Of a stretch of 28,256 nucleotides of DNA, positions 902-26,900 are shown in pieces (the first letter of the stretch is position 1; each line of letters opens with the position of its first letter). Where the stretch lies: the IMG/VR virus record IMGVR_UViG_3300037245_003526, positions 216,297 through 244,552 of that record; one strand, given 5' to 3'. A program made the position numbers and the translations under genes. Below the pieces are notes generated by a model, which saw nothing but the letters and a program-made list of their open reading frames with translations, was not told the origin of the DNA and made no database searches. Source of the stretch: a virus.

Positions 902-1387
902 ATGTTACGATATATGAATAGATCTATTTTGAGCGCTCCAAATTTTAAGTATAGAGAATTTATAAAATCAGACACAGCAACAAGATATAATATTAAAAAT
1001 GAACCAACTGATGAGCAATGGCAAAATATAGAAATAGTAGCATCACAAATTATTCAACCAGTTCGAAATGAATTTGGTGGAATAAGAATTACATCAGGAT
1101 TTAGAAGTCCTGAACTTTGTGAAAAGATAGGAAGTTCTAAAAAATCCAATCACACAAAAGGGCAAGCAGTTGATTTTGAACCTATAGATAACGTTCCTAT
1201 GATTAAAATATTGGAGTGGATTTCAGAAAATTGTGAGTTTAGAGAACTTATAGCTGAATTTTTTCCAGACGGATGGATTCACGTAGCATATAGACTTGGT
1301 GGTAATATTGGGAAGATAAAACTAAAAGATCCAAACCATAATTATGAAGAAAAAAATATAGAATATATCCGTTCAATATACCAGTAG
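902..1387 (+). CDS. peptidase M15 family (L-alanyl-D-glutamate peptidase / VanY-like), probable endolysin
   Basis: Strong RBS GAGGAGG. Zn-ligand pattern SGFRSPE...SNHTKGQAVDFEP...GWIHVAY (H-x-x-G-x-A-x-D plus a distal His), as in T5-type endolysins of the M15 family. Confidence 0.7.
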   Translation: MLRYMNRSILSAPNFKYREFIKSDTATRYNIKNEPTDEQWQNIEIVASQIIQPVRNEFGGIRITSGFRSPELCEKIGSSKKSNHTKGQAVDFEPIDNVPMIKILEWISENCEFRELIAEFFPDGWIHVAYRLGGNIGKIKLKDPNHNYEEKNIEYIRSIYQ

Positions 1388-2833: not shown

Positions 2834-3709
2834 ATGAAACAAATCGAAGATGTGAAAATTTTAGTAGTTGGCGATATTATGTTAGATGAATATATAGTTG
2901 GAGATGTTAATAGAATTTCACCAGAAGCTCCAGTACCAATAGTTACTGTTAAAGATACATATTATAAACTAGGTGGTTGTGGAAACGTAATATCTAATCT
3001 TTCAAATATTGGAGCTAGAGTATCTTGTGTAACAGCAATAGGTCAAGATCAACCATCGAATATTATTCTGAAAGAACTTAGAAGTTTAAATGTTGATACA
3101 GAGTTTTTAATTTCTAGATCTGATATAACAACTACAATTAAAACAAGAATTATTTCTGATGAACGACAAATACAAATACTTCGATATGACACAGAGAATA
3201 TAAAAGATGTAGATACGTCTATTCTTGAATTAACTAATGGATATGATGTAATTGTAATTTCAGATTATGCTAAAGGTATGATAACAAAACCATTAATGGA
3301 TAAACTTAAAAGTTTTGGTAATAATATCATAGTTGATCCAAAACCAAAAAATTCACATTTATATAATGATATATTTTTAATGACTCCAAACCAAAAAGAA
3401 CATGATGAAATGATGAACGGTTATTTTCCAAGAGTTGAATATGTATTAAAAACTATGGGAAAAAATGGAATGGAGTTAATAGAGCAAAAACATGGAAGAC
3501 AAGGTGGAATTAAAATTAAATCAAAACCTGTCGATGTTTATAATGTAAGCGGAGCAGGTGATACAGTAGTAGCAATTATATCTCTTTGTTTAGCATTAGG
3601 TAACGACTTATATACCTCTGCTAAAATAGCAAATGAATGTGCCGGTTATGTAGTAACCCAAACAGGAACCTCAATGGTGCCAAGAGAATTTTTTAAGGAG
3701 CTATTATGA
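2834..3709 (+). CDS. D-glycero-beta-D-manno-heptose-7-phosphate kinase-like (HldE/RfaE domain I, pfkB/ribokinase fold)
   Basis: AAAGGAGA RBS. The N-terminus ILVVGDIMLDEYIVGDVNRISPEAPVPIVTV is nearly diagnostic for RfaE/HldE domain I. Also present: DYAKG, IVDPKPKN, and the C-terminal pfkB anion-hole motif NVSGAGDTVVAI...AGYVVTQTGT. At 291 aa it is kinase-only; there is no adenylyltransferase domain. Confidence 0.75.
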   Translation: MKQIEDVKILVVGDIMLDEYIVGDVNRISPEAPVPIVTVKDTYYKLGGCGNVISNLSNIGARVSCVTAIGQDQPSNIILKELRSLNVDTEFLISRSDITTTIKTRIISDERQIQILRYDTENIKDVDTSILELTNGYDVIVISDYAKGMITKPLMDKLKSFGNNIIVDPKPKNSHLYNDIFLMTPNQKEHDEMMNGYFPRVEYVLKTMGKNGMELIEQKHGRQGGIKIKSKPVDVYNVSGAGDTVVAIISLCLALGNDLYTSAKIANECAGYVVTQTGTSMVPREFFKELL

Positions 3710-4443
3710 AGAAAATTATATTAGTTTTATTTATATTATTAGTAAGTATATGCTCCTTAAGTTATGCAGATATTACTGTACAATGGGACGCAAATACAGA
3801 ACCTGACTTAGCAGGTTATAAAGTTTATTATGATGAAATATCACAGTGTCCAGATGGAGAAGATACATGTACAAATCCTAATTCATTATATACTGGTACT
3901 GGAGCAGTAGAGGGATCATCTCCTATTATAATAAATGAAACTCTATCAAATCCAGAATTTACTTTAACCGGACTTGATTCTTCAATAGATTGGTTTATAT
4001 CAGTTACAGCTTTTGATAATGAAACACCTGCTTTAGAAAGTGATCTTTCAAATCAGGTGGTAGCTTTAAAAGATATTATTACACCTCCTGATATTATTCT
4101 TGAAGAAACAACTTTGTTATGGGATGCTAATACAGAACCTGACTTAGCAGGTTATAAAGTTTATTATGATACAAATACAGGAACTCCATATAGTGGTACT
4201 GGAGCTATAGTATGGGGTGTACCAGCTGATTCTCCAATTATCATTCCATTAACTGCTCCTGGATTTGATCCTACTAATCCAGAGATTACACTAAAACTTG
4301 ATGGATGTATAACATGGTTTTTTGTAGTTACAGCTTATGACACTGAAAATCTTGAAAGTGATTATTCAAACGAAGTTTCAGATCCAGATGGTTGTCCACC
4401 TGAACCACCAACTGGAGTGATAGTAGTAATAACTCCAATATAG
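3706..4443 (+). CDS. secreted protein with two fibronectin-III-like repeats
   Basis: ATGA overlap with the upstream stop, and an AAGGAG RBS. N-terminal signal peptide MKKIILVLFILLVSICSLSYA. Two ~110-aa repeats share WDANTEPDLAGYKVYYD...SPIII...W..VTA.D.EN.ESD.SN.V. A 48-nt DNA tract is near-identical at 3787-3834 and 4123-4170. Confidence 0.65.
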   Translation: MKKIILVLFILLVSICSLSYADITVQWDANTEPDLAGYKVYYDEISQCPDGEDTCTNPNSLYTGTGAVEGSSPIIINETLSNPEFTLTGLDSSIDWFISVTAFDNETPALESDLSNQVVALKDIITPPDIILEETTLLWDANTEPDLAGYKVYYDTNTGTPYSGTGAIVWGVPADSPIIIPLTAPGFDPTNPEITLKLDGCITWFFVVTAYDTENLESDYSNEVSDPDGCPPEPPTGVIVVITPI

Positions 4444-4457
4444 TGAAAGGAAAAATA

Positions 4458-4988
4458 ATGAAACCAACGAATGAAATGAAAGAATATTTTGAACTAAGAA
4501 CCAACAGTCATATTAATATTGTGCAACTTAGTATGTTTTCTTTAATAAATAAAAAAGTTCATGAGAAGTATAATCTTAATAAAATTAATTTAATAAGTAG
4601 AGCTGATATACATGATAAATCCAAATTTGGTGATGTGGAATATACTCCATATGTTTGGTTAACAGAATTTTATCGAGCTAAAAATAATAACGAGCCTTTT
4701 AGTTATCCAGATGGAATGGAAGATTTAATATTTGATGCTTGGATACATCACTCTGAAACTAATCCTCATCATCCAGAATATTATCATAATTGTATTAGAA
4801 TGTCAGAAGAAGATATGGTTGAAATGGTTTGTGATTGGAATTCTATGTCACAGGAATATAATCAATCTCTTAAGAAATGGGTAGATGAAAATATTGATAG
4901 AAAATGGAAATTTAATAAAAAAAATAAAAAGTTTATTTATGAGATAGTAGAAATATTAGAACAAAAACTAAATACAGATATACTTTAA
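4458..4988 (+). CDS. possible HD-domain phosphohydrolase
   Basis: The ORF track starts at GTG 4443. An ATG at 4458 with an upstream AAAGGA fits better. His/Asp pattern: H(INIV)...RADIHDKSKFGD...DAWIHHSETNPHH...VCDWN. Weak motif-level call. Confidence 0.5.
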   Translation: MKPTNEMKEYFELRTNSHINIVQLSMFSLINKKVHEKYNLNKINLISRADIHDKSKFGDVEYTPYVWLTEFYRAKNNNEPFSYPDGMEDLIFDAWIHHSETNPHHPEYYHNCIRMSEEDMVEMVCDWNSMSQEYNQSLKKWVDENIDRKWKFNKKNKKFIYEIVEILEQKLNTDIL

Positions 4989-7773: not shown

Positions 7774-7923
7774 ATGGATCTATATATAGAGCATATAAAG
7801 AATATTTTAAAAGAACCAAAAAAAATAAATCTATCAGAAGTAACCATCACTAATAAAGATTTATTTATAATAAATGAAATCGCTAGAAAAGATGAAAAAC
7901 TTTTTCAGATTGGAGATGAATAA
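7774..7923 (+). CDS. small ORF (49 aa) below the track size cut-off
   Basis: AAAAGGAGAattattATG at 7774. Translation MDLYIEHIKNILKEPKKINLSEVTITNKDLFIINEIARKDEKLFQIGDE*. Its TAA overlaps the ATG of the next gene (TAATG coupling). Confidence 0.4.
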   Translation: MDLYIEHIKNILKEPKKINLSEVTITNKDLFIINEIARKDEKLFQIGDE

Positions 7924-8348
7924 TGGATGATAATGACTATTTAAACCTATTAAAAGATCAACAAAAAAAAGACGATGAATCATTGGTTATGTTAAATGAA
8001 GAGAAACAAGATACCGAAACATTCGCTCCGTGGATAGGTGTTGATCTTGATGGAACATTAGCATATTATGAAAAAGGATATGCTCAGAAAAAAATGATTG
8101 GTGATCCAATTCCTGAAATGTTTGAAAGAGTAAAGAAGTGGATTGCTGATGGTAAAATAGTAAAAATATTTACTGCAAGAGTATACAAAAAAGAAGATGT
8201 TGGATTAATAAAAGATTGGTTGAAAAAAGTTGGTCTCCCTGATCTTGATGTAACCAATATTAAAGATCCTGGTATGTATGTCCTTTATGACGATAGAGCA
8301 GTTCAAGTACAACAAAATACCGGAAAGCTTCTAGGTAAACCTATTTAA
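7923..8348 (+). CDS. HAD-superfamily phosphatase (polynucleotide 3'-phosphatase / deoxyribonucleotidase-like)
   Basis: HAD motif I GVDLDGTLAY, motif II KIFTAR, and a motif IV-like LYDDRAVQV resembling the T4 Pnk phosphatase DDRTQVV. Confidence 0.6.
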   Translation: MDDNDYLNLLKDQQKKDDESLVMLNEEKQDTETFAPWIGVDLDGTLAYYEKGYAQKKMIGDPIPEMFERVKKWIADGKIVKIFTARVYKKEDVGLIKDWLKKVGLPDLDVTNIKDPGMYVLYDDRAVQVQQNTGKLLGKPI

Positions 8349-8701: not shown

Positions 8702-9205
8702 TTATTCACCCCCTAAATATTGACCGCATGTACATGCATCAGGTAATGCGTCAAGTTTTTTAATTATATCATTAAAATATTCTGAAGTTAAAACATGATC
8801 ATCATCTTTAACATAAATTTGTCTGAATCCTTTTACGTCTCCTGTTATTTCCTCCTGACTATAAGCAGCACTAACTCCAGAAAAACTTGGAAGTACTTTT
8901 CTAACACACATTATTAAATCTGATTCTTTTGGCCATAATTGAACCTCTATTGACGTACCTTCTATTACTTTATTAAATTCTGAAGAATTTAACATAAGGT
9001 ATACAAAAATTTCATTTATGGTTGCACAATTATCAACAGAACCAAACGCTTTATGATTTATGAACATTTCTGGTAGATTTACAATATTTAATCCATGAGT
9101 ATGGGTTGGAAATAATCCGCCTGAATCAGTATGGACAATATGAGGTGGGGGTGCTTTTTTTAGTGTCTCTAAATCTAAAATACTTTCATTATAGTAATCG
9201 CTCAT
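8702..9205 (-). CDS. DUF4262-like protein (167 aa)
   Basis: AAGGAGAC RBS. Motif FPTHTHGLNIVNLPEMF resembles the (Y/H)T.GL...PE(L/M) signature of DUF4262, from memory. Confidence 0.5.
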   Translation of the reverse strand: MSDYYNESILDLETLKKAPPPHIVHTDSGGLFPTHTHGLNIVNLPEMFINHKAFGSVDNCATINEIFVYLMLNSSEFNKVIEGTSIEVQLWPKESDLIMCVRKVLPSFSGVSAAYSQEEITGDVKGFRQIYVKDDDHVLTSEYFNDIIKKLDALPDACTCGQYLGGE

Positions 9206-9249
9206 TATAGTCTCCTTTCAATTTTAGTAAACAAACTCTCCTATTCAAT

Positions 9250-9286
9250 AATTTATATATATAGTAATTTCTATATTATAGAACAA
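9250..9286 (-). promoter_or_regulatory. sigma70-like promoter candidate for 8702..9205 (TTGTTC-N17-TATATATATAAAT)
   Basis: On the minus strand: TTGTTCtataatatagaaattacTATATATATAAAT. Same architecture as the promoters downstream of the terminators at 22.4, 24.2 and 26.9 kb. Confidence 0.4.
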
Positions 9287-9297
9287 ATTAAAAAGGA
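9271..9297 (+). repeat. 27-nt exact repeat, also at 12624-12650
   Basis: ctatattatagaacaaattaaaaagga at 9271-9297 (upstream of the caspase gene) and again at 12624-12650 (3' end of 12405..12644, upstream of the histone-like gene). Confidence 0.7.
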
Positions 9298-9307
9298 GGT
9301 ATTTATT

Positions 9308-10246
9308 ATGGGATGTAAATGTTTAGAAAAAATACAATCATTATTTTCTGGTTGGAATCCATATCCATATGTACCTGGACAAGATGATAATATTATTCTT
9401 GACCCAATACCTGAACCTACTCCTGACCCAATACCTGAACCTATTATTGAACCTGTAAAGAAAGCAGTATTGGTTGGTATAAATATTTATCCAGCTCATA
9501 TGGATGCTAATTTAAGTGGATGTGTAAATGATGTTACGAATATGAGAAATTTATTGGTTTATACGTATGGATTTGATCCTGATAACATTAGAGTTCTAAA
9601 TGATGATCGTGCTACTAAAGCTAAAATTTTTGAAAGGTTAACATGGTTAATGAATTCTAATGAAGGTGATGAATTAGTATTTCATTATAGTGGTCATGGT
9701 AGTCAAGTAAGAGATAGAAATGGCGATGAACTAGATGATGGTTTAGATGAAATATTAATACCATACGACCATGATTGGGATGCTCCATTATTAGATGATC
9801 AAATAGCTGAAATATTTAAAACACAACCTGAAGGAACTAATCTCACAATGATTGCTGATTGCTGTCACAGTGGTTCTGTTTCTAGAGATATATCTAAAAA
9901 GAAGAAAAAAATTAGATTCCTTACACCACCATTTGATATCAGAAATAGAAGTCTTGATAAAGACTTATTATTAAGAAAAATTGGAGTTAAACCAAAAGGG
10001 ACTCAAAGACATATTCTTGCATCAGGTTGTAAAGATCATCAAACCTCAGCAGATGCATATATAGGATCAACATGGCAAGGTGCTTTTACATACGCTTTAA
10101 CTTCAGCTTTAAAAACAAATTCTAATCAATCTTGGACTTCAGCAATTGAAAAATTAAGTAGTATATTAGAAGTAAAAGGTTTTGATCAAACACCTCAACT
10201 AAGCGGAGATGATCAAAATAAATTAGTTTTTGGCGGAGCTGTTTAA
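9308..10246 (+). CDS. caspase-family (peptidase C14, metacaspase-like) protease
   Basis: AAAAGGAGG RBS. Catalytic dyad contexts FHYSGHGSQ (His) and IADCCHSGS (Cys, the D-x-C-H-S-G metacaspase signature). Typical fold start VLVGINIY and C-terminal QLSGDDQNKLVFGG. N-terminal MGCKC followed by a Pro-rich linker DPIPEPTPDPIPEPIIEP encoded by an 18-nt direct repeat. Confidence 0.8.
   Translation: MGCKCLEKIQSLFSGWNPYPYVPGQDDNIILDPIPEPTPDPIPEPIIEPVKKAVLVGINIYPAHMDANLSGCVNDVTNMRNLLVYTYGFDPDNIRVLNDDRATKAKIFERLTWLMNSNEGDELVFHYSGHGSQVRDRNGDELDDGLDEILIPYDHDWDAPLLDDQIAEIFKTQPEGTNLTMIADCCHSGSVSRDISKKKKKIRFLTPPFDIRNRSLDKDLLLRKIGVKPKGTQRHILASGCKDHQTSADAYIGSTWQGAFTYALTSALKTNSNQSWTSAIEKLSSILEVKGFDQTPQLSGDDQNKLVFGGAV
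9401..9442 (+). repeat. 18-nt direct repeat (x2) encoding a Pro-rich linker in the caspase gene
   Basis: gacccaatacctgaacct at 9401-9418 and 9425-9442 (DPIPEP x2). Confidence 0.7.
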
Positions 10247-10549
10247 ATGGGGACTGGAAATGGTAATGATAAAATAAATAGAACCTTAATAGAAAGAATC
10301 TTCAATACAGAACTTGAAAAAAGAGAAGAAGAACAAACTAAAACTATTATGAGAAATATTTTAATAGGTTGTATTATTACTACAGTTGTTACCTTATTAG
10401 GAACATGGACAGTATGGAATACTATACAAACTATGCAAGTAAAATATAATAAAGAAGAGATTATAGAAATACAAGAACAACTAGAAAAAAATGAAGAAAG
10501 GTTTACAAAATTTAGAGAAGAATTTTTAACAAGTCCAAAAAAGAAGTAA
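10247..10549 (+). CDS. single-pass membrane protein (100 aa) coupled to the caspase gene
   Basis: TAAATG overlap with the caspase stop. A central TM ILIGCIITTVVTLLGTWTVW is flanked by charged coiled-coil-like segments. Confidence 0.55.
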   Translation: MGTGNGNDKINRTLIERIFNTELEKREEEQTKTIMRNILIGCIITTVVTLLGTWTVWNTIQTMQVKYNKEEIIEIQEQLEKNEERFTKFREEFLTSPKKK

Positions 10550-10561
10550 GGAGGATTTACC

Positions 10562-10912
10562 ATGGAACCAAAACCAGGAAAGAAAAGTACAGAATTCGGA
10601 ATGTCTATAGCTGGAGCTATTTTAGGGATAGCAGTAGTATTCGGAATTATATCACCAGATGAAAGTTTAGCTTTGAATGGAAATATACAAACAATAGTTG
10701 GTGGTGCTATAAGTGCGGTATCAGTAGTTGGTTATGCTATTTCAAGAGCAAGAGCAAAAGGAAGCGCAACAGATTCTCAAACTATATTAAATGCTATTGC
10801 TTCATTATCAAATACACAACCGCCGCCACGTGTTAAAGTAAGTGCTAGACAAATTGCTCATGTTATGAAATTAATAGAAGCAAAAAAAGAAAAAGATAAA
10901 TTAGGTAAATAA
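10562..10912 (+). CDS. two-TM glycine-zipper small membrane protein (116 aa), holin-like topology
   Basis: AAGGAGG RBS. TM1 MSIAGAILGIAVVFGII and TM2 IVGGAISAVSVVGYAI carry GxxxG/A motifs. Basic C-terminal tail. Confidence 0.6.
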   Translation: MEPKPGKKSTEFGMSIAGAILGIAVVFGIISPDESLALNGNIQTIVGGAISAVSVVGYAISRARAKGSATDSQTILNAIASLSNTQPPPRVKVSARQIAHVMKLIEAKKEKDKLGK

Positions 10913-10920
10913 TATATTAA

Positions 10921-10951
10921 GGAGAAAGGGGAATTAAATCCCCCTTTCTCC
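10921..10951. terminator. bidirectional terminator hairpin
   Basis: GGAGAAAGGGG-aattaaatc-CCCCTTTCTCC 11-bp perfect stem between convergent genes. Confidence 0.6.
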
Positions 10952-11319
10952 TACTTCTTTTGATTCTTTCTAATCCATCTTCCAAACTTATAAAAACCCC
11001 TACCTGGACGTTTAATTCTTTCATCACCCTTTTGTGCCATTTGAGTTAACCCATTATGAATTTGTTTTCTGTTTAATACAGGTAGGAGTTCATGAACCTC
11101 CACGGTTCTTAAACCTCCTGGTTTATCATTATCAAACAAAATCTGAAGAATAAGATCTCTTTGAAAGTTCTTTTTATCTCTTCTTAACCGTACCTTATAC
11201 TCATTAGTGGCCGTAAAAGTTTGAATGAAATGAAGTAAAATATTAGTCAGTGTTTTTTGCTTTCCCATCTCTTTTTCTAATTTTGCAACTTTTTCATTTA
11301 ACTCTTTTAAAGTAGCCAT
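10951..11319 (-). CDS. possible winged-helix DNA-binding protein (122 aa)
   Basis: C-terminal GLTQMAQKGDERIKRPGRGFYKF resembles the G..L.R..RG.Y wHTH of the AbiEi-N-like family. Weak. Confidence 0.5.
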   Translation of the reverse strand: MATLKELNEKVAKLEKEMGKQKTLTNILLHFIQTFTATNEYKVRLRRDKKNFQRDLILQILFDNDKPGGLRTVEVHELLPVLNRKQIHNGLTQMAQKGDERIKRPGRGFYKFGRWIRKNQKK

Positions 11320-12145: not shown

Positions 12146-12404
12146 TACACCTCCTTAATATTAAAATATTAAAAACAAATGAATCCTATCACTAAATAAT
12201 ATATATAGTAGTAGTGACTTTAAAATAGGGATTTTTATGTTTATTTTAGTAACATATTATTAAAGGAGGTTATTATTAATACTACAAAAGATAGAGATAT
12301 TTATTATCATTATAAATTTATCTTAGGAACCCATGGATCGGATAGAGCTATAGTTCTTACGTCAATCCTTTTTAATAAGGATGAAGGTATAGTCAAAAAA
12401 ATAT

Positions 12405-12644
12405 GTGAAGAAGGAGATAAGAAATATAATGAAAAAATCTAAAAAAAGAAAATTGAAAAAAAGAAAACAACAACCTAAAATAGTTACTCATCAAATAAAA
12501 AAACCTACCTTACTAGAAATAATAAAAAGAAAATTTAAACAATTCAAAGAAGATCATTTTATTATATACTCATTTTTAGATACTATAGTATATATGACTC
12601 TTATATATGGATCAATAGCACTACTATATTATAGAACAAATTAA
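12405..12644 (+). CDS. basic protein with C-terminal TM (79 aa)
   Basis: GAAGGAGA RBS. KKRKLKKRKQQPK N-terminus, hydrophobic C-terminus. Confidence 0.5.
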   Translation: MKKEIRNIMKKSKKRKLKKRKQQPKIVTHQIKKPTLLEIIKRKFKQFKEDHFIIYSFLDTIVYMTLIYGSIALLYYRTN

Positions 12645-13444: not shown

Positions 13445-14677
13445 ATGGGTAAAATTAAATATCCTGGTTTATGTGAGTTCGTTCAGGAAAAACTCAAACA
13501 GAAAAAAGATTCCACAGAGATATTTAATGAGGCATGTAGAACATTCAATTACAAAGATAGAATTAGTAGCTTCAGAAGATATGTAAATAATATAAAATAT
13601 AGACATAAAGATGATAGTCCAAATCAACCCTCAAATGATCAAACCATAAAAGAAAACTTACCAAAAGATGACGTATCAGAATTTCTTGATATTGTTTCGA
13701 AACAAAAAAATATAAGCATTATTGACATATGTAATGATCTTAATTGTTCACCACAAAGAATAGATAATTTAGTTTCCTATCATAGATCAAAAGGTTATGA
13801 TATCACCATTCATGAAGATATGGTTATGTTCTTTACAGACCTAGTATCATCAGTCGAACAAGTCCCTCAGATATCAGAAACCGAAATAACATTTGGTGTA
13901 GCATCCGACCTACACTTTGGATCCAAAGCAGCACAAATAACCGCTCTAAATGAGTTCTGTAATATATGTTCAAAAAGAGGAGTTAAACACATATTCAGTC
14001 CAGGTGATATTGTAGCAGGTTATAATGTATACCCTGGACAGCAATTCGATTTATATGCTTTATCAGCAGAAGAGCAAGAAGATTCAGTAATTAAAAATCT
14101 TCCAACCGGTGACTTTCAATGGTATATGTTAGGTGGTAATCATGATTATGCCTTTATTAAAAAGGGTGGTGGTCATAATCCTGTATTAGCAATAGCATCA
14201 AAAAGAGAAGATGTACATTATGTAGGTTTCGATGATGCTGATATACCTATACTTAATGGAGTAGAGCTTAAGCTGTGGCACCCTTCTGGAGGTGTGCCAT
14301 ATTCAGTATCTTATAGATTACAAAAAGGTGTAGAGCAAATATCATATAGCGAATTAAGAAGAATAATAAGCGGAGAAAAAATGGCACCAACAATTAGATT
14401 TGTACTGTCTGGTCATTTACATATTCAAGTACAAGCTATGATTGGATCAATATTCGGAATGCAATGTGGAGCATTTGAAGGTCAAACAAATTATCTAAAA
14501 CGTAAAGGTTTAGTACCTAATATTGGTGGATATATAGTTAATGCAGAATTAGGAAAAAATGGTCTTATTAAAAATTTCGATGCTAAATTTTATATGTTTG
14601 AAGATATAGAAGATGATTGGAGAAACTATAGTCATAGTATACCAAAACAAAAAATAGTTAAACCTATATTTGGATGA
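13445..14677 (+). CDS. calcineurin-like metallophosphoesterase with an N-terminal extension (410 aa)
   Basis: TGGAGG RBS. MPP motifs ASDLHFG (D-x-H), SPGDIVAG (GD), LGGNHDY (GNHD), LWHPSGG, and LSGHLHIQ (GH-x-H). Confidence 0.7.
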   Translation: MGKIKYPGLCEFVQEKLKQKKDSTEIFNEACRTFNYKDRISSFRRYVNNIKYRHKDDSPNQPSNDQTIKENLPKDDVSEFLDIVSKQKNISIIDICNDLNCSPQRIDNLVSYHRSKGYDITIHEDMVMFFTDLVSSVEQVPQISETEITFGVASDLHFGSKAAQITALNEFCNICSKRGVKHIFSPGDIVAGYNVYPGQQFDLYALSAEEQEDSVIKNLPTGDFQWYMLGGNHDYAFIKKGGGHNPVLAIASKREDVHYVGFDDADIPILNGVELKLWHPSGGVPYSVSYRLQKGVEQISYSELRRIISGEKMAPTIRFVLSGHLHIQVQAMIGSIFGMQCGAFEGQTNYLKRKGLVPNIGGYIVNAELGKNGLIKNFDAKFYMFEDIEDDWRNYSHSIPKQKIVKPIFG

Positions 14678-15441
14678 AAACTGAAAAATATTATATTTAT
14701 GCATATTTAGATCCAACAAAAAAAGGTAATTTTAAATATACGATTGAAGGAAAAATATTTATATTTGAATTTGAACCTTTTTATATTGGAAGAGGAACAA
14801 AAAATAGACTATTGGATCATTTAAAGTTACATCCTTTAGATAAAAATTATTTTAAAAAGAATAAAATTAAAAAAATAAAAAAATTAAATATAGAACCAAT
14901 AATAGTCAAGGTAAAGTTTTTACCTGATAAAATAAAAGCTAACTTATTAGAAAAAGAATTTATTAGTGTTATTGGTAGAAGAGATTTGAATCTAGGACCC
15001 TTAACAAATCTTACTGATGGGGGAGATGGAACTTATGGTTATAAACCTTCTGAAGAAGCAAAAAGAAACTGGAAAAAATCTATAAAAAAATTTTATGATG
15101 TAAAAGAAAATAGAGATAGAATGGGTTACTATAGTACAATTGAAGGAATGATTGAAAAATATGGAATAGTTGAGGGAGAAAAAAAGTATAAAGAAAGAAT
15201 AAGAAAGATGAAGAAGTCGATTAATAAAACATATAGTGATCCAAAAATAAGAAAAAAATGCTCAAATAAAGGTTCTAAAAATGGAATGTTTGGTATTACC
15301 CCACCTCATGCAAAAAAAGTTTTAGTTATGGAAGTTTTTTATAACTCCATTGCAGAAGCTTCTAAACATACTAAAGTTCCGTATACCACATTATCTCAAA
15401 GGTTAAATAGTAAAAATTTTTCAGAATATAAATATTTATAA
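14674..15441 (+). CDS. GIY-YIG homing endonuclease
   Basis: Overlaps the preceding stop (ATGA) and has a weak RBS, as is typical of free-standing HEGs. N-terminus YIYAYLDP...PFYIGRGTKNRLLDH carries GIY and YIG motifs with conserved R/H. The C-terminus has a NUMOD-like HTH (GMFG..PHAKKVL..EVFYNSIAEASKHTKVPYTTLSQRLNS). Confidence 0.8.
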   Translation: MKTEKYYIYAYLDPTKKGNFKYTIEGKIFIFEFEPFYIGRGTKNRLLDHLKLHPLDKNYFKKNKIKKIKKLNIEPIIVKVKFLPDKIKANLLEKEFISVIGRRDLNLGPLTNLTDGGDGTYGYKPSEEAKRNWKKSIKKFYDVKENRDRMGYYSTIEGMIEKYGIVEGEKKYKERIRKMKKSINKTYSDPKIRKKCSNKGSKNGMFGITPPHAKKVLVMEVFYNSIAEASKHTKVPYTTLSQRLNSKNFSEYKYL

Positions 15442-19363: not shown

Positions 19364-19414
19364 TAACCCTTCCTTAGTTAGTAATATATTTAGTAGTCAT
19401 TATTATATTGGAAC

Positions 19415-19444
19415 AAAAAAAGAGGGTTGCCATACCTCTCTTTT
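19415..19444. terminator. bidirectional terminator between convergent genes
   Basis: A7-GAGGG-ttgccata-CCTCTC-T4, preceded by the conserved ATTATATTGGAACAA block. Confidence 0.5.
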
Positions 19445-22402: not shown

Positions 22403-22443
22403 ACTTAATAATATATATAGCATCCGTCATTATATTGGAACAA
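22403..22443 (-). promoter_or_regulatory. promoter cassette immediately downstream of a terminator (TTGTTC-N18-TATATATATTATTAAG)
   Basis: On the minus strand: T7-GTTCCAATATAATgacggatgcTATATATATTATTAAG. Near-identical cassettes occur at 24158-24196 and 26862-26900. Confidence 0.4.
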
Positions 22444-22474
22444 AAAAAGAGGTAGACTAATCCTCTCCTTTTTA
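22442..22474 (-). terminator. terminator hairpin (A7-AGAGG-tagactaat-CCTCT-T5)
   Basis: Follows the stop of 22485..23123. Loop sequence tagactaat is identical to the hairpin at 26899-26928. Confidence 0.5.
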
Positions 22475-24157: not shown

Positions 24158-24196
24158 ACTTAATATATATAGATTCCTTTTATAATATTGGAACAA
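24158..24196 (-). promoter_or_regulatory. promoter cassette downstream of a terminator (TTGTTC-N19-TATATATATTAAGTTATAAGACTAGG)
   Basis: Conserved block shared with 26862-26900, including the 5'-leader-like GTTATAAGACTAGG(A/G)ATATTT. Confidence 0.4.
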
Positions 24197-24242
24197 AAAA
24201 GAAGGTTGGAAGACTGTTCGTTTATAGAACAATCTCCCAACC
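24195..24242 (-). terminator. terminator: 16-bp stem hairpin
   Basis: GGTTGGAAGACTGTTC-gtttata-GAACAATCTCCCAACC. The two plus-strand mismatches become G-U wobbles in the minus-strand RNA. A U-run follows on the minus strand. Confidence 0.55.
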
Positions 24243-26861: not shown

Positions 26862-26900
26862 ACTTAATATATATAGTATCAATCATTAAAATTGGAACAA
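26862..26900 (-). promoter_or_regulatory. promoter cassette for the helicase transcription unit
   Basis: Minus strand: T7-GTTCCAATTTTAATgattgatacTATATATATTAAGTTATAAGACTAGGGATATTT. Confidence 0.4.

Follow-up and report, generated by a model that had tools for sequence, protein, structure and literature searches.

A phage-encoded metacaspase in a gene cluster with a holin-like membrane protein, and its possible part in lysis

To our knowledge the control of phage lysis has been attributed to holin, antiholin, endolysin and spanin, and to no dedicated protease. Full-text literature searches returned no account of a phage lysis cassette that includes a caspase-family protease, and phage metacaspases appear in the literature searched only as unexplained auxiliary genes; viromics papers list viral metacaspase genes only as auxiliary genes of stress or programmed cell death (e.g. 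bioRxiv 10.64898/2026.01.21.700432). The locus considered here lies in a stretch of 28,256 nucleotides (positions 216,297 to 244,552 of IMG/VR record IMGVR_UViG_3300037245_003526), referred to below as the window, from a large (~245 kb) uncultivated phage that is probably a jumbo phage. Its first gene encodes a metacaspase and is followed by genes for two small proteins, ORF2 and ORF3. Judged from its sequence, the locus would be an accessory operon in which the metacaspase is co-expressed with two small inner-membrane proteins, one of them putatively of a holin family. The reading favoured here, with a probability of roughly 0.45, is that a membrane-tethered, Arg/Lys-specific and probably Ca2+-dependent protease may act in the timing or execution of lysis, the evidence that points to lysis being that of gene neighbourhood. 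The presence of the same protease inside the lysis cassettes of related phages suggests an undescribed proteolytic step in phage lysis. What is new is the recurrent combination of the two; taken singly, the protease is an unremarkable representative of a family already known, and proteins of the kind that ORF3 resembles are known as well.

Comparison with canonical lysis cassettes, such as S/R/Rz/Rz1 of lambda and t/e/rI of T4, brings out both likeness and difference. ORF3 is like class II holins in size, in the topology of its two transmembrane (TM) helices, which puts both termini inside (N-in/C-in), and in its basic C-terminal tail. Its relatives adjoin amidases, a lysozyme and spanin-like lipoproteins, and in related phages the gene order runs endolysin, metacaspase, lipoprotein, two-TM protein. 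Unlike in the canonical cassettes, the endolysin of the window is not adjacent. The type I or prokaryotic metacaspases (MEROPS C14B; Yca1, 4F6O; Candida glabrata MCA (CgMCA), 7QP0 and 7QP1; Trypanosoma brucei MCA2 (TbMCA2), 4AFR; Geobacter GSU0716, 3BIJ) share with the phage protease the dyad motifs HYSGHG and DxCHSG, the Asp residues expected in S1, the acidic cluster, the caspase-hemoglobinase fold, a short linker between p20 and p10 and a Pro-rich N-terminal region. In contrast to them the window protease is encoded by a phage, has an amphipathic N-terminus of MCKC type where a TM helix would otherwise stand, and is clustered with a gene of a holin-like family.

Bacterial gasdermins with their caspase-like protease, the type III-E Craspase and the TIR-caspase variants of Thoeris have a clan-CD protease beside membrane-active small proteins, as the window likewise may, and the idea that proteolysis licenses the permeabilisation of a membrane would apply here too; the window, however, has a plain metacaspase and not a CHAT protease, shows neither a gasdermin fold nor a sensor or signalling domain, and has phage-borne genes whose partners are not conserved. 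In Arabidopsis, the influx of Ca2+ on loss of membrane integrity activates metacaspase 4 (AtMC4), which cleaves PROPEP1. The phage protease may likewise report loss of membrane integrity, and AtMC4 (6W8R) is among its top structural matches, but AtMC4 is a type II enzyme with a long linker, at work in a eukaryotic cytosol, and the Ca2+ dependence of the phage enzyme is deduced from alignment. Metacaspases and caspases of giant viruses (nucleocytoplasmic large DNA viruses), for instance those of Fadolivirus and Clandestinovirus, give significant fold matches in BFVD (E ~1e-18); they differ in coming from viruses of eukaryotes and in having no holin or endolysin context.

The metacaspase and its probable membrane tether

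The protein is a bona fide metacaspase of caspase-hemoglobinase fold with its catalytic dyad intact, and a profile search upholds the C14 assignment made in a first-pass annotation of the window from its letters alone. The match to Pfam Peptidase_C14 (PF00656; E=2.1e-32, 113.1 bits against a cutoff of 21.4) takes in residues 51-304 and profile positions 2-229 of 233, and metacaspase-1 in the PDB is matched at E=1e-34. HYSGHG and DCCHSG of the phage protein align residue by residue with HYSGHG and DSCHSG of the metacaspase-1 of yeast (Yca1) and Candida (7QP0), and the dyad residues, His130 (nt 9695-9697) and Cys186 (nt 9863-9865), are invariant in an alignment of 34 homologues, as are Asp75 and Asp184. 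An AlphaFold2 (AF2) model of the protease has a pLDDT of 77.8, above 90 in the core, and the top Foldseek matches of the model are AtMC4, AtMC9, CgMCA, Yca1 and TbMCA2 (E=1e-18 to 1e-13).

From the structures of TbMCA2 and Yca1 we take Asp75 and Asp184 to be residues of the S1 pocket. The acidic cluster D136-E148 (DRNGDELDDGLDE), in which D136, D140, E141, D144, D147 and E148 are invariant in the 34 homologues, aligns with DGDE-EDGMDD of Yca1 and CgMCA, presumably the region of the Ca2+ site in those enzymes. The conservation of Asp75, Asp184 and the acidic cluster makes Arg/Lys specificity and Ca2+ dependence of the protease likely.

The family is very large, with 6869 matches in a big protein collection, all of ~300 amino acids (aa). 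A single one of 50,697 GenBank phage records was matched, that of an unannotated 485-kb uncultured phage, and an exact-sequence look-up of the window protease gave no match. In BFVD all significant matches are proteins of giant viruses or ascoviruses, and none at E<=0.001 is from a phage. The metacaspase loci from IMG/VR that are compared below were retrieved with an alignment of the family (A1), a single-sequence scan of IMG/VR having given none. Cellular homologues of 45-50% identity occur on genome contigs (L174-L253) from metagenome-assembled genomes (MAGs) of Desulfobacterota, Methanothrix, Nitrospirota, Dehalococcoidia and Bipolaricaulota, and the taxa of the closest of them possibly hint at the host or at the origin of the gene. 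One of these contigs, L174, is identical with L015, a phage contig that binning had placed in a deltaproteobacterial MAG. A role as prohead protease was considered and set aside, the context of structural genes being absent.

Residues 1-17 (MGCKCLEKIQSLFSGW) of the protease are amphipathic, and a Pro/Glu-rich spacer (residues 31-48) separates them from the C14 domain. A TM helix takes the place of the MCKC-type N-terminus in 71 of the 120 best homologues, and 16 have an M(G/A)CK(C/F) N-terminus like that of the window protease; ~15 others have amphipathic N-termini rich in Trp, Phe, Leu and Lys, and 10 have no extension. An N-terminal TM helix joined to a metacaspase is a known prokaryotic architecture (PMC3501461). 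In the 71 homologues Lys and Arg number 0.03 in the ten residues that precede the TM helix and 4.1 in the ten that follow it, and by the positive-inside rule this distribution places the catalytic domain of the TM forms in the cytoplasm. The hydrophobic moments of the MCKC-type segments are 0.56-0.64 (top 0.4-2% of shuffles), that of the window protease being 0.58 (top 2%), which fits an in-plane membrane helix, and the window protease is probably tethered at the inner face of the cell membrane.

The tethering that the first-pass annotation proposed from the MGCKC start is thus plausible, given the TM helix in so many homologues and the amphipathic MCKC segments. Myristoylation or palmitoylation of the eukaryotic style was rejected in view of the lack of conservation of Gly2 (MCKF, MACKC and MGKCKC also occur) and of the strong bacterial Shine-Dalgarno sites. 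Export by signal-anchor-release (SAR) was rejected as well, the basic residues of the homologues standing after and not before the TM helix. The Pro-rich linker is encoded, as first described, by a tandem repeat, which has a 12-nt unit and lies at 9400-9438; among homologues the Pro/Glu-rich spacer is variable in length, with a (PEPEPI)n expansion in L172, which is divergent from the window phage but syntenic with it.

Lysis-cassette neighbourhoods and the small membrane proteins

A clear association with lysis is seen in one clade of phages with proteases of MCKxC type (L013, L290, L015, L022 and L276), where the gene order runs from endolysin through metacaspase and a conserved lipoprotein of ~150 aa to a small protein with two TM helices. 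The endolysin gene, immediately 5′ of that for the metacaspase, encodes Phage_lysozyme in L013 and L290, Amidase_2 in L015 (E=2.8e-16) and an M15-like protein in L022 and L276. The M15-like assignment in L022 comes from 43% identity to a protein of L169 that is itself sub-threshold for Peptidase_M15_4, and a PDB sequence search with the 152-aa protein of L022 gave no useful match. That the endolysin has been replaced by three unrelated classes while the metacaspase stays argues that the protease is a resident of the lysis cassette of that clade. The same M15-like gene is also found immediately 5′ of the protease in L169 and L280, of a group with HNH and DUF1937 genes, and in L012 and L018 the metacaspase gene comes straight after one of the ORF3 family.

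In the divergent relative L172 the window's order of protease (~64% identity), ORF2 (56%) and ORF3 (~70%) is kept. The L172 metacaspase, of 314 aa, starts with MACKC and has its dyad intact, with DCCNSG instead of the otherwise invariant DCCHSG; the ORF3 homologue has 93 aa. Between the ORF2 and ORF3 homologues of L172 (5310-6535) are genes for a two-TM metalloprotease resembling Peptidase_M48 (HEIGH; Pfam E=1e-6) and for a 60-aa Zn-ribbon protein. Counted over dereplicated clusters with at least 45% identity, a recognisable endolysin or holin-like gene is within 2.5 kb in 7 of 34, a lower bound since lysis genes were recognised by seed sequences of our own only; by our estimate a gene placed at random among the 100-300 of a genome would give a few percent. 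We count about three independent associations with lysis, in the MCKxC clade, in the group of L169 and L280, and in the lineage of the window and L172.

The two TM helices of ORF3 span residues ~14-34 and ~42-60 and are joined by an acidic loop; both ends of the protein are basic, and with the predicted N-in/C-in topology and its charged C-terminal tail it has the size and layout of a class II holin. The helices of its AF2 model (10-26, 32-83 and 95-114) agree with the TM calls. A basic C-terminal extension of 50 aa, absent from most of the family and similar to those found in L172, L275 and L089, is modelled as a continuation of the second TM helix, then a Pro-rich break and a confident terminal helix; both termini should be cytoplasmic and reachable by the protease.

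Relatives of ORF3 were found stepwise. A word-index search with ORF3 alone gave only near-identical proteins, relatives in L012, L018 and L013/L014 came to light when the metacaspase loci were searched by tblastn, and a family profile built from such relatives in metacaspase loci retrieved 80 IMG/VR loci and 31 proteins. A tblastn search of 50,697 GenBank phages with ORF3 and a typical family member gave no match, keeping in mind that the low-complexity filter may mask TM segments. Members have ~60-100 aa (typically ~70) and two TM helices (alignments A2, A3 and A5), begin with an invariant KPG..(S/T)(S/T)EF (KPGWKTTEFW) and end with Y..SR...K. A gene of the family directly follows Amidase_2 in L126 (E=2.5e-9) and Amidase_3 in L151 (E=3.8e-19), and in L013 it is two genes after Phage_lysozyme (E=1.2e-11). 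A small conserved lipoprotein follows in most loci; the commonest order is portal, TubZ-like, ORF3-like, a protein of ~60 aa and a lipoprotein of ~72 aa with a PEGWY motif. Topology and neighbourhood make ORF3 a putative holin, and because curated models give weak signals (Phage_holin_10 at E=0.021 and 15.3 bits, below the cutoff of 27; holin PHROGs for 3 of 18 family members at E ~0.002) it is called holin-like and not a member of any named holin family.

A separate observation concerns the TubZ-like gene. A Tubulin/FtsZ/TubZ-like protein of ~385 aa (Pfam Tubulin E=1.5e-11) is encoded directly before the ORF3-like gene in L141 (3769-4926) and in ~29 other loci among L088-L167, and its gene itself comes after terminase and portal genes in the largest group of phages with an ORF3-like gene.

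ORF2 is bitopic, with one TM helix at about residues 37-57 (nt 10355-10417) and then a charged, coiled-coil-like tail of 43 aa. Only two relatives emerged when 1.84 billion representative proteins were searched exhaustively with HMMER: P0152 of L172 (56% identity), again directly after the metacaspase, and P0153 on the 304-kb contig L173 (33%), which is followed by a 197-aa lipoprotein and has no metacaspase nearby. In L007 ORF2 is cut to 46 aa without a TM helix, and the ORF3 there is 94% identical to that of the window. Conservation thus marks ORF2 as real and lineage-restricted, possibly dispensable. No lipobox ORF is adjacent to it or embedded in it in the window, and for lack of a lipoprotein partner it is not counted as the inner-membrane component (i-spanin) of a two-component spanin. 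An antisense ORF (10243-10563, minus strand; 106 aa with three hydrophobic segments) fully overlaps ORF2 and exceeds its length; it was judged spurious, the plus-strand protein being conserved in L172 and L173. The single-pass and two-TM, holin-like characters first ascribed to ORF2 and ORF3 agree with the TM predictions and with the family context of ORF3.

A distant lineage of metacaspases (35-39% identity, without an N-terminal anchor) is encoded in L050 (5001-6502), L066 (1114-2621), L070 (4776-6263) and L072 (5001-6532). There the protease is followed by two translationally coupled proteins of ~125 aa, a tail-anchored coiled-coil protein with a C-terminal TM helix and then a protein with two N-terminal TM helices and an acidic tail. 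The layout of that operon parallels that of the window, and the partners have no sequence similarity to those of the window.

Layout, expression signals and surrounding genes

The three genes are packed and coupled in the manner that the first-pass annotation described (Table 1). The TAA stop codon of the protease gene (10244-10246) abuts the ATG of ORF2, and ORF3 begins 12 nt after ORF2, preceded by AAGGAGG at 10548-10554. The protease gene has its own Shine-Dalgarno sequence, GGAGG at 9295-9299, 8 nt 5′ of its ATG. The strong bidirectional terminator noticed at the 3′ end is confirmed as a hairpin of dG -21.7 kcal/mol (z=-3.9; none of 200 shuffles folds equally well), separating the convergent ORF3 and a leftward gene at 10951-11319.

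Table 1. Positions of the main features in the window
Feature	Position	Strand	Description
Candidate endolysin, Peptidase_M15_3	902-1387	+	Pfam PF08291, E=1.8e-13
Divergent intergenic region	9206-9307	.	protease Shine-Dalgarno sequence and AT-rich element TATATATATAGTA ... ATATTATAGAACAAA
Metacaspase gene	9308-10246	+	312 aa
ORF2	10247-10549	+	100 aa, one TM helix
ORF3	10562-10912	+	116 aa, two TM helices
Bidirectional terminator-like hairpin	10920-10952	.	12-bp stem, 9-nt loop

The promoter that had been proposed for the three genes fares less well. A scan for sigma-70 promoters gave 17 sites with 15.6 expected, which is chance level and yields no promoter signal for the operon, and a sigma-70 promoter was rejected on that count. 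The divergent intergenic region is conserved (83% across the window, L001 and L172), and its AT-rich element is also present at no fewer than 8 intergenic sites of the window. The copy at 9250-9300 has the orientation and spacing seen before leftward operons and is most readily interpreted as a promoter for the leftward, divergent gene 8702-9205; because of that match a rightward promoter is not established.

The element is composite, consisting of TAATATATATAGTA, then 5-10 nt, then ATATT(N1-4)GAACAAA, and apart from 9250-9300 it is found at 12194-12210, 19379-19417, 22406-22444, 24158-24197 and 26862-26900, with further positions at 2778-2791, 4953-4965 and 12626-12640. Its second half occurs 7 times with 0.28 expected, always on the plus strand regardless of gene orientation. 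Before leftward operons the order, in the direction of the genes, is a terminator hairpin, GTTCCAATATAAT, CTATATATATTA, ~50 nt and the ATG. The composite element is a candidate phage promoter or regulatory unit.

The window has a GC content of ~30% and short, close-packed genes, and its content bears out the phage-like surroundings first described: a Peptidase_M15_3, a DUF5662 protein, a Metallophos nuclease, a GIY-YIG homing endonuclease, a helicase and many ORFans, with no tRNA found in the window. The Peptidase_M15_3, which sits outside the three-gene operon, is the likely enzyme partner if ORF3 is a holin, its link to the operon being by inference. The next gene (1404-1859) encodes a 151-aa coiled-coil protein with a C-terminal TM helix at about residues 113-130; it shows no similarity to the L050 partner protein. 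It is followed by a gene (1859-2701) for a response-regulator receiver and PAS protein (Response_reg E=1.6e-10, PAS_9 E=8e-6), a 486-aa relative of which is encoded near the metacaspase in L171 (1656-3116). A predicted secreted protein (3706-4443) has the motif V(T)LxWDANTExDLAxYK(V/L)Y and a signal-like N-terminal segment, and the same WDANTE motif and signal-like N-terminus recur in L018 (4812-5267), in the gene directly downstream of the metacaspase.

A gene for a HAD-like phosphatase is just upstream of the metacaspase in most window-like phages (7923-8348 in the window, 4111-4929 in L011, 4129-4901 in L020 and 4217-4950 in L171), and in the window two leftward ORFans lie between it and the protease. 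It is often accompanied by a one-TM protein of ~115 aa with a region like the MscS beta-domain; L275 has the MscS-like protein only (3570-3947). The GIY-YIG, I-TevI-like homing endonuclease gene (14674-15441) follows the Metallophos gene in the window and in L006 and is missing there in the close relative L001, which suggests a mobile gene with a presence/absence polymorphism.

Competing readings and what a lysis protease would mean

Several findings weigh against a part in lysis. The lysis-cassette examples are largely those of one phage clade, with just the three or so independent associations, and most metacaspase homologues are outside lysis contexts: in 13 of the 34 clusters the gene has HNH on one side and DUF1937 on the other, and in 8 it comes after a HAD-like phosphatase, a group to which the genome type of the window belongs. 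The +1 and +2 positions show no excess of TM proteins (22% and 21% against a background of 18% in 59 dereplicated viral loci), and a general enrichment of TM proteins beside viral metacaspases was rejected. ORF3 reaches no curated holin threshold in Pfam or PHROG and, in the window, is not adjacent to an endolysin, the only recognisable one being the M15_3 peptidase 8 kb off; of the 80 IMG/VR loci in which the ORF3 family is represented, only 2 have a metacaspase; and ORF2, almost without relatives, is cut short in L007. Conservation of the membrane partners, which the first-pass annotation had made a test of its proposal, is lacking over most of the family, the +1 and +2 frequencies being near background and no membrane partner accompanying the protease in L002-L005, L168, L169 and L171; the clade with endolysin-metacaspase cassettes is a clear exception. 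The lysis-timing role suggested in that annotation, one of several offered there, has comparative support from this clade and from the trio of genes in L172, and for most homologues, in their non-lysis contexts, it finds none.

Such a distribution would suit an independent accessory protease of host takeover or counter-defence, with host targets such as defence effectors or membrane-associated machinery, in which case the holin-type neighbour would be incidental and the co-transcription without partnership. This is possible, though on the unlikely side. The very large family is mostly without lysis or membrane partners, in the closest relatives by genome type (L168, L171 and L275) neither ORF2 nor ORF3 adjoins the protease gene, and the homologues of 45-50% identity in MAGs of Desulfobacterota, Methanothrix and Nitrospirota suggest repeated capture of a host gene. 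What such a protease leaves unexplained is the repeated position directly after three unrelated classes of endolysin, hard to come by through chance, and the retention of the protease/ORF2/ORF3 cluster in the divergent L172; the membrane tether, too, points to membrane-proximal substrates.

The three genes might instead form a gasdermin-like toxic module, in which some trigger leads the protease to activate pores of ORF2 or ORF3, with superinfection exclusion or abortive infection of competitors as the outcome. A protease beside small membrane proteins with basic, potentially cleavable tails has this general form, an analogous and non-homologous operon exists in L050, L066, L070 and L072, and the C-terminal extension of ORF3 that most relatives lack could be inhibitory. 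It is nevertheless improbable: neither a gasdermin-like fold nor a family match in Pfam was found, the protease has no sensor or repeat domain, membrane partners are not conserved across the protease family, and the ORF3 family is found in ordinary lysis cassettes. Since ORF2 and ORF3 are TM proteins without a gasdermin family match or homologues of that kind, they do not qualify as gasdermin-like effectors, and the analogy with gasdermin and CHAT abortive infection that was first drawn for the locus is not supported, the genes being in phage genomes and not in host defence islands.

It is very improbable that the metacaspase is itself an envelope lytic enzyme, leaving through holin holes to cut Lys/Arg-containing links of the envelope, such as peptide stems or the tethers between lipoproteins and peptidoglycan, and serving as an additional lysin or in place of a spanin: it does stand beside endolysins in the cassettes of L013, L015, L022, L276 and L290, Ca2+ is plentiful outside the cytoplasm, and a conserved ...IKPDxSxRxPxKK before the catalytic domain of TM-anchored homologues could be a site of release by autocleavage, but the anchor of most homologues leaves the catalytic domain on the cytoplasmic side, neither a signal peptide nor an anchor of SAR type is present, and we know of no C14 enzyme that acts on peptidoglycan or its tethers.

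On the favoured reading, that of a tethered protease acting in lysis, the enzyme would be at the cytoplasmic face of the inner membrane and largely inactive at the resting level of cytoplasmic Ca2+. It might trim the basic cytoplasmic tails of ORF3 or ORF2 and so set the timing of lysis; the charge of a holin tail is a known determinant of timing in lambda S. In a second version, Ca2+ entering through a membrane lesion or a holin hole would activate the protease, membrane-proximal host or phage proteins would be cleaved, and lysis would become fast and irreversible. The Ca2+ trigger and the substrates are hypotheses.

A wider proposal, tentative and rather doubtful, is that caspase-family proteases are an unrecognised component of phage lysis, with a tethered metacaspase that is switched on by Ca2+ entry or by autoprocessing and cleaves holin or antiholin tails, or proteins of envelope maintenance, so setting or locking the time of death. 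Should the adjacency be incidental, the finding shrinks to another phage-borne copy of a common bacterial protease. If instead a conserved metacaspase does act in lysis cassettes, it would add a layer of control that is proteolytic and possibly Ca2+-sensing. The genes known as viral metacaspases would then gain a concrete function, and the caspase family would be linked to bacterial cell death imposed by a virus: the lysis that viruses program in bacteria would make use of the same protease family as programmed cell death in eukaryotes.

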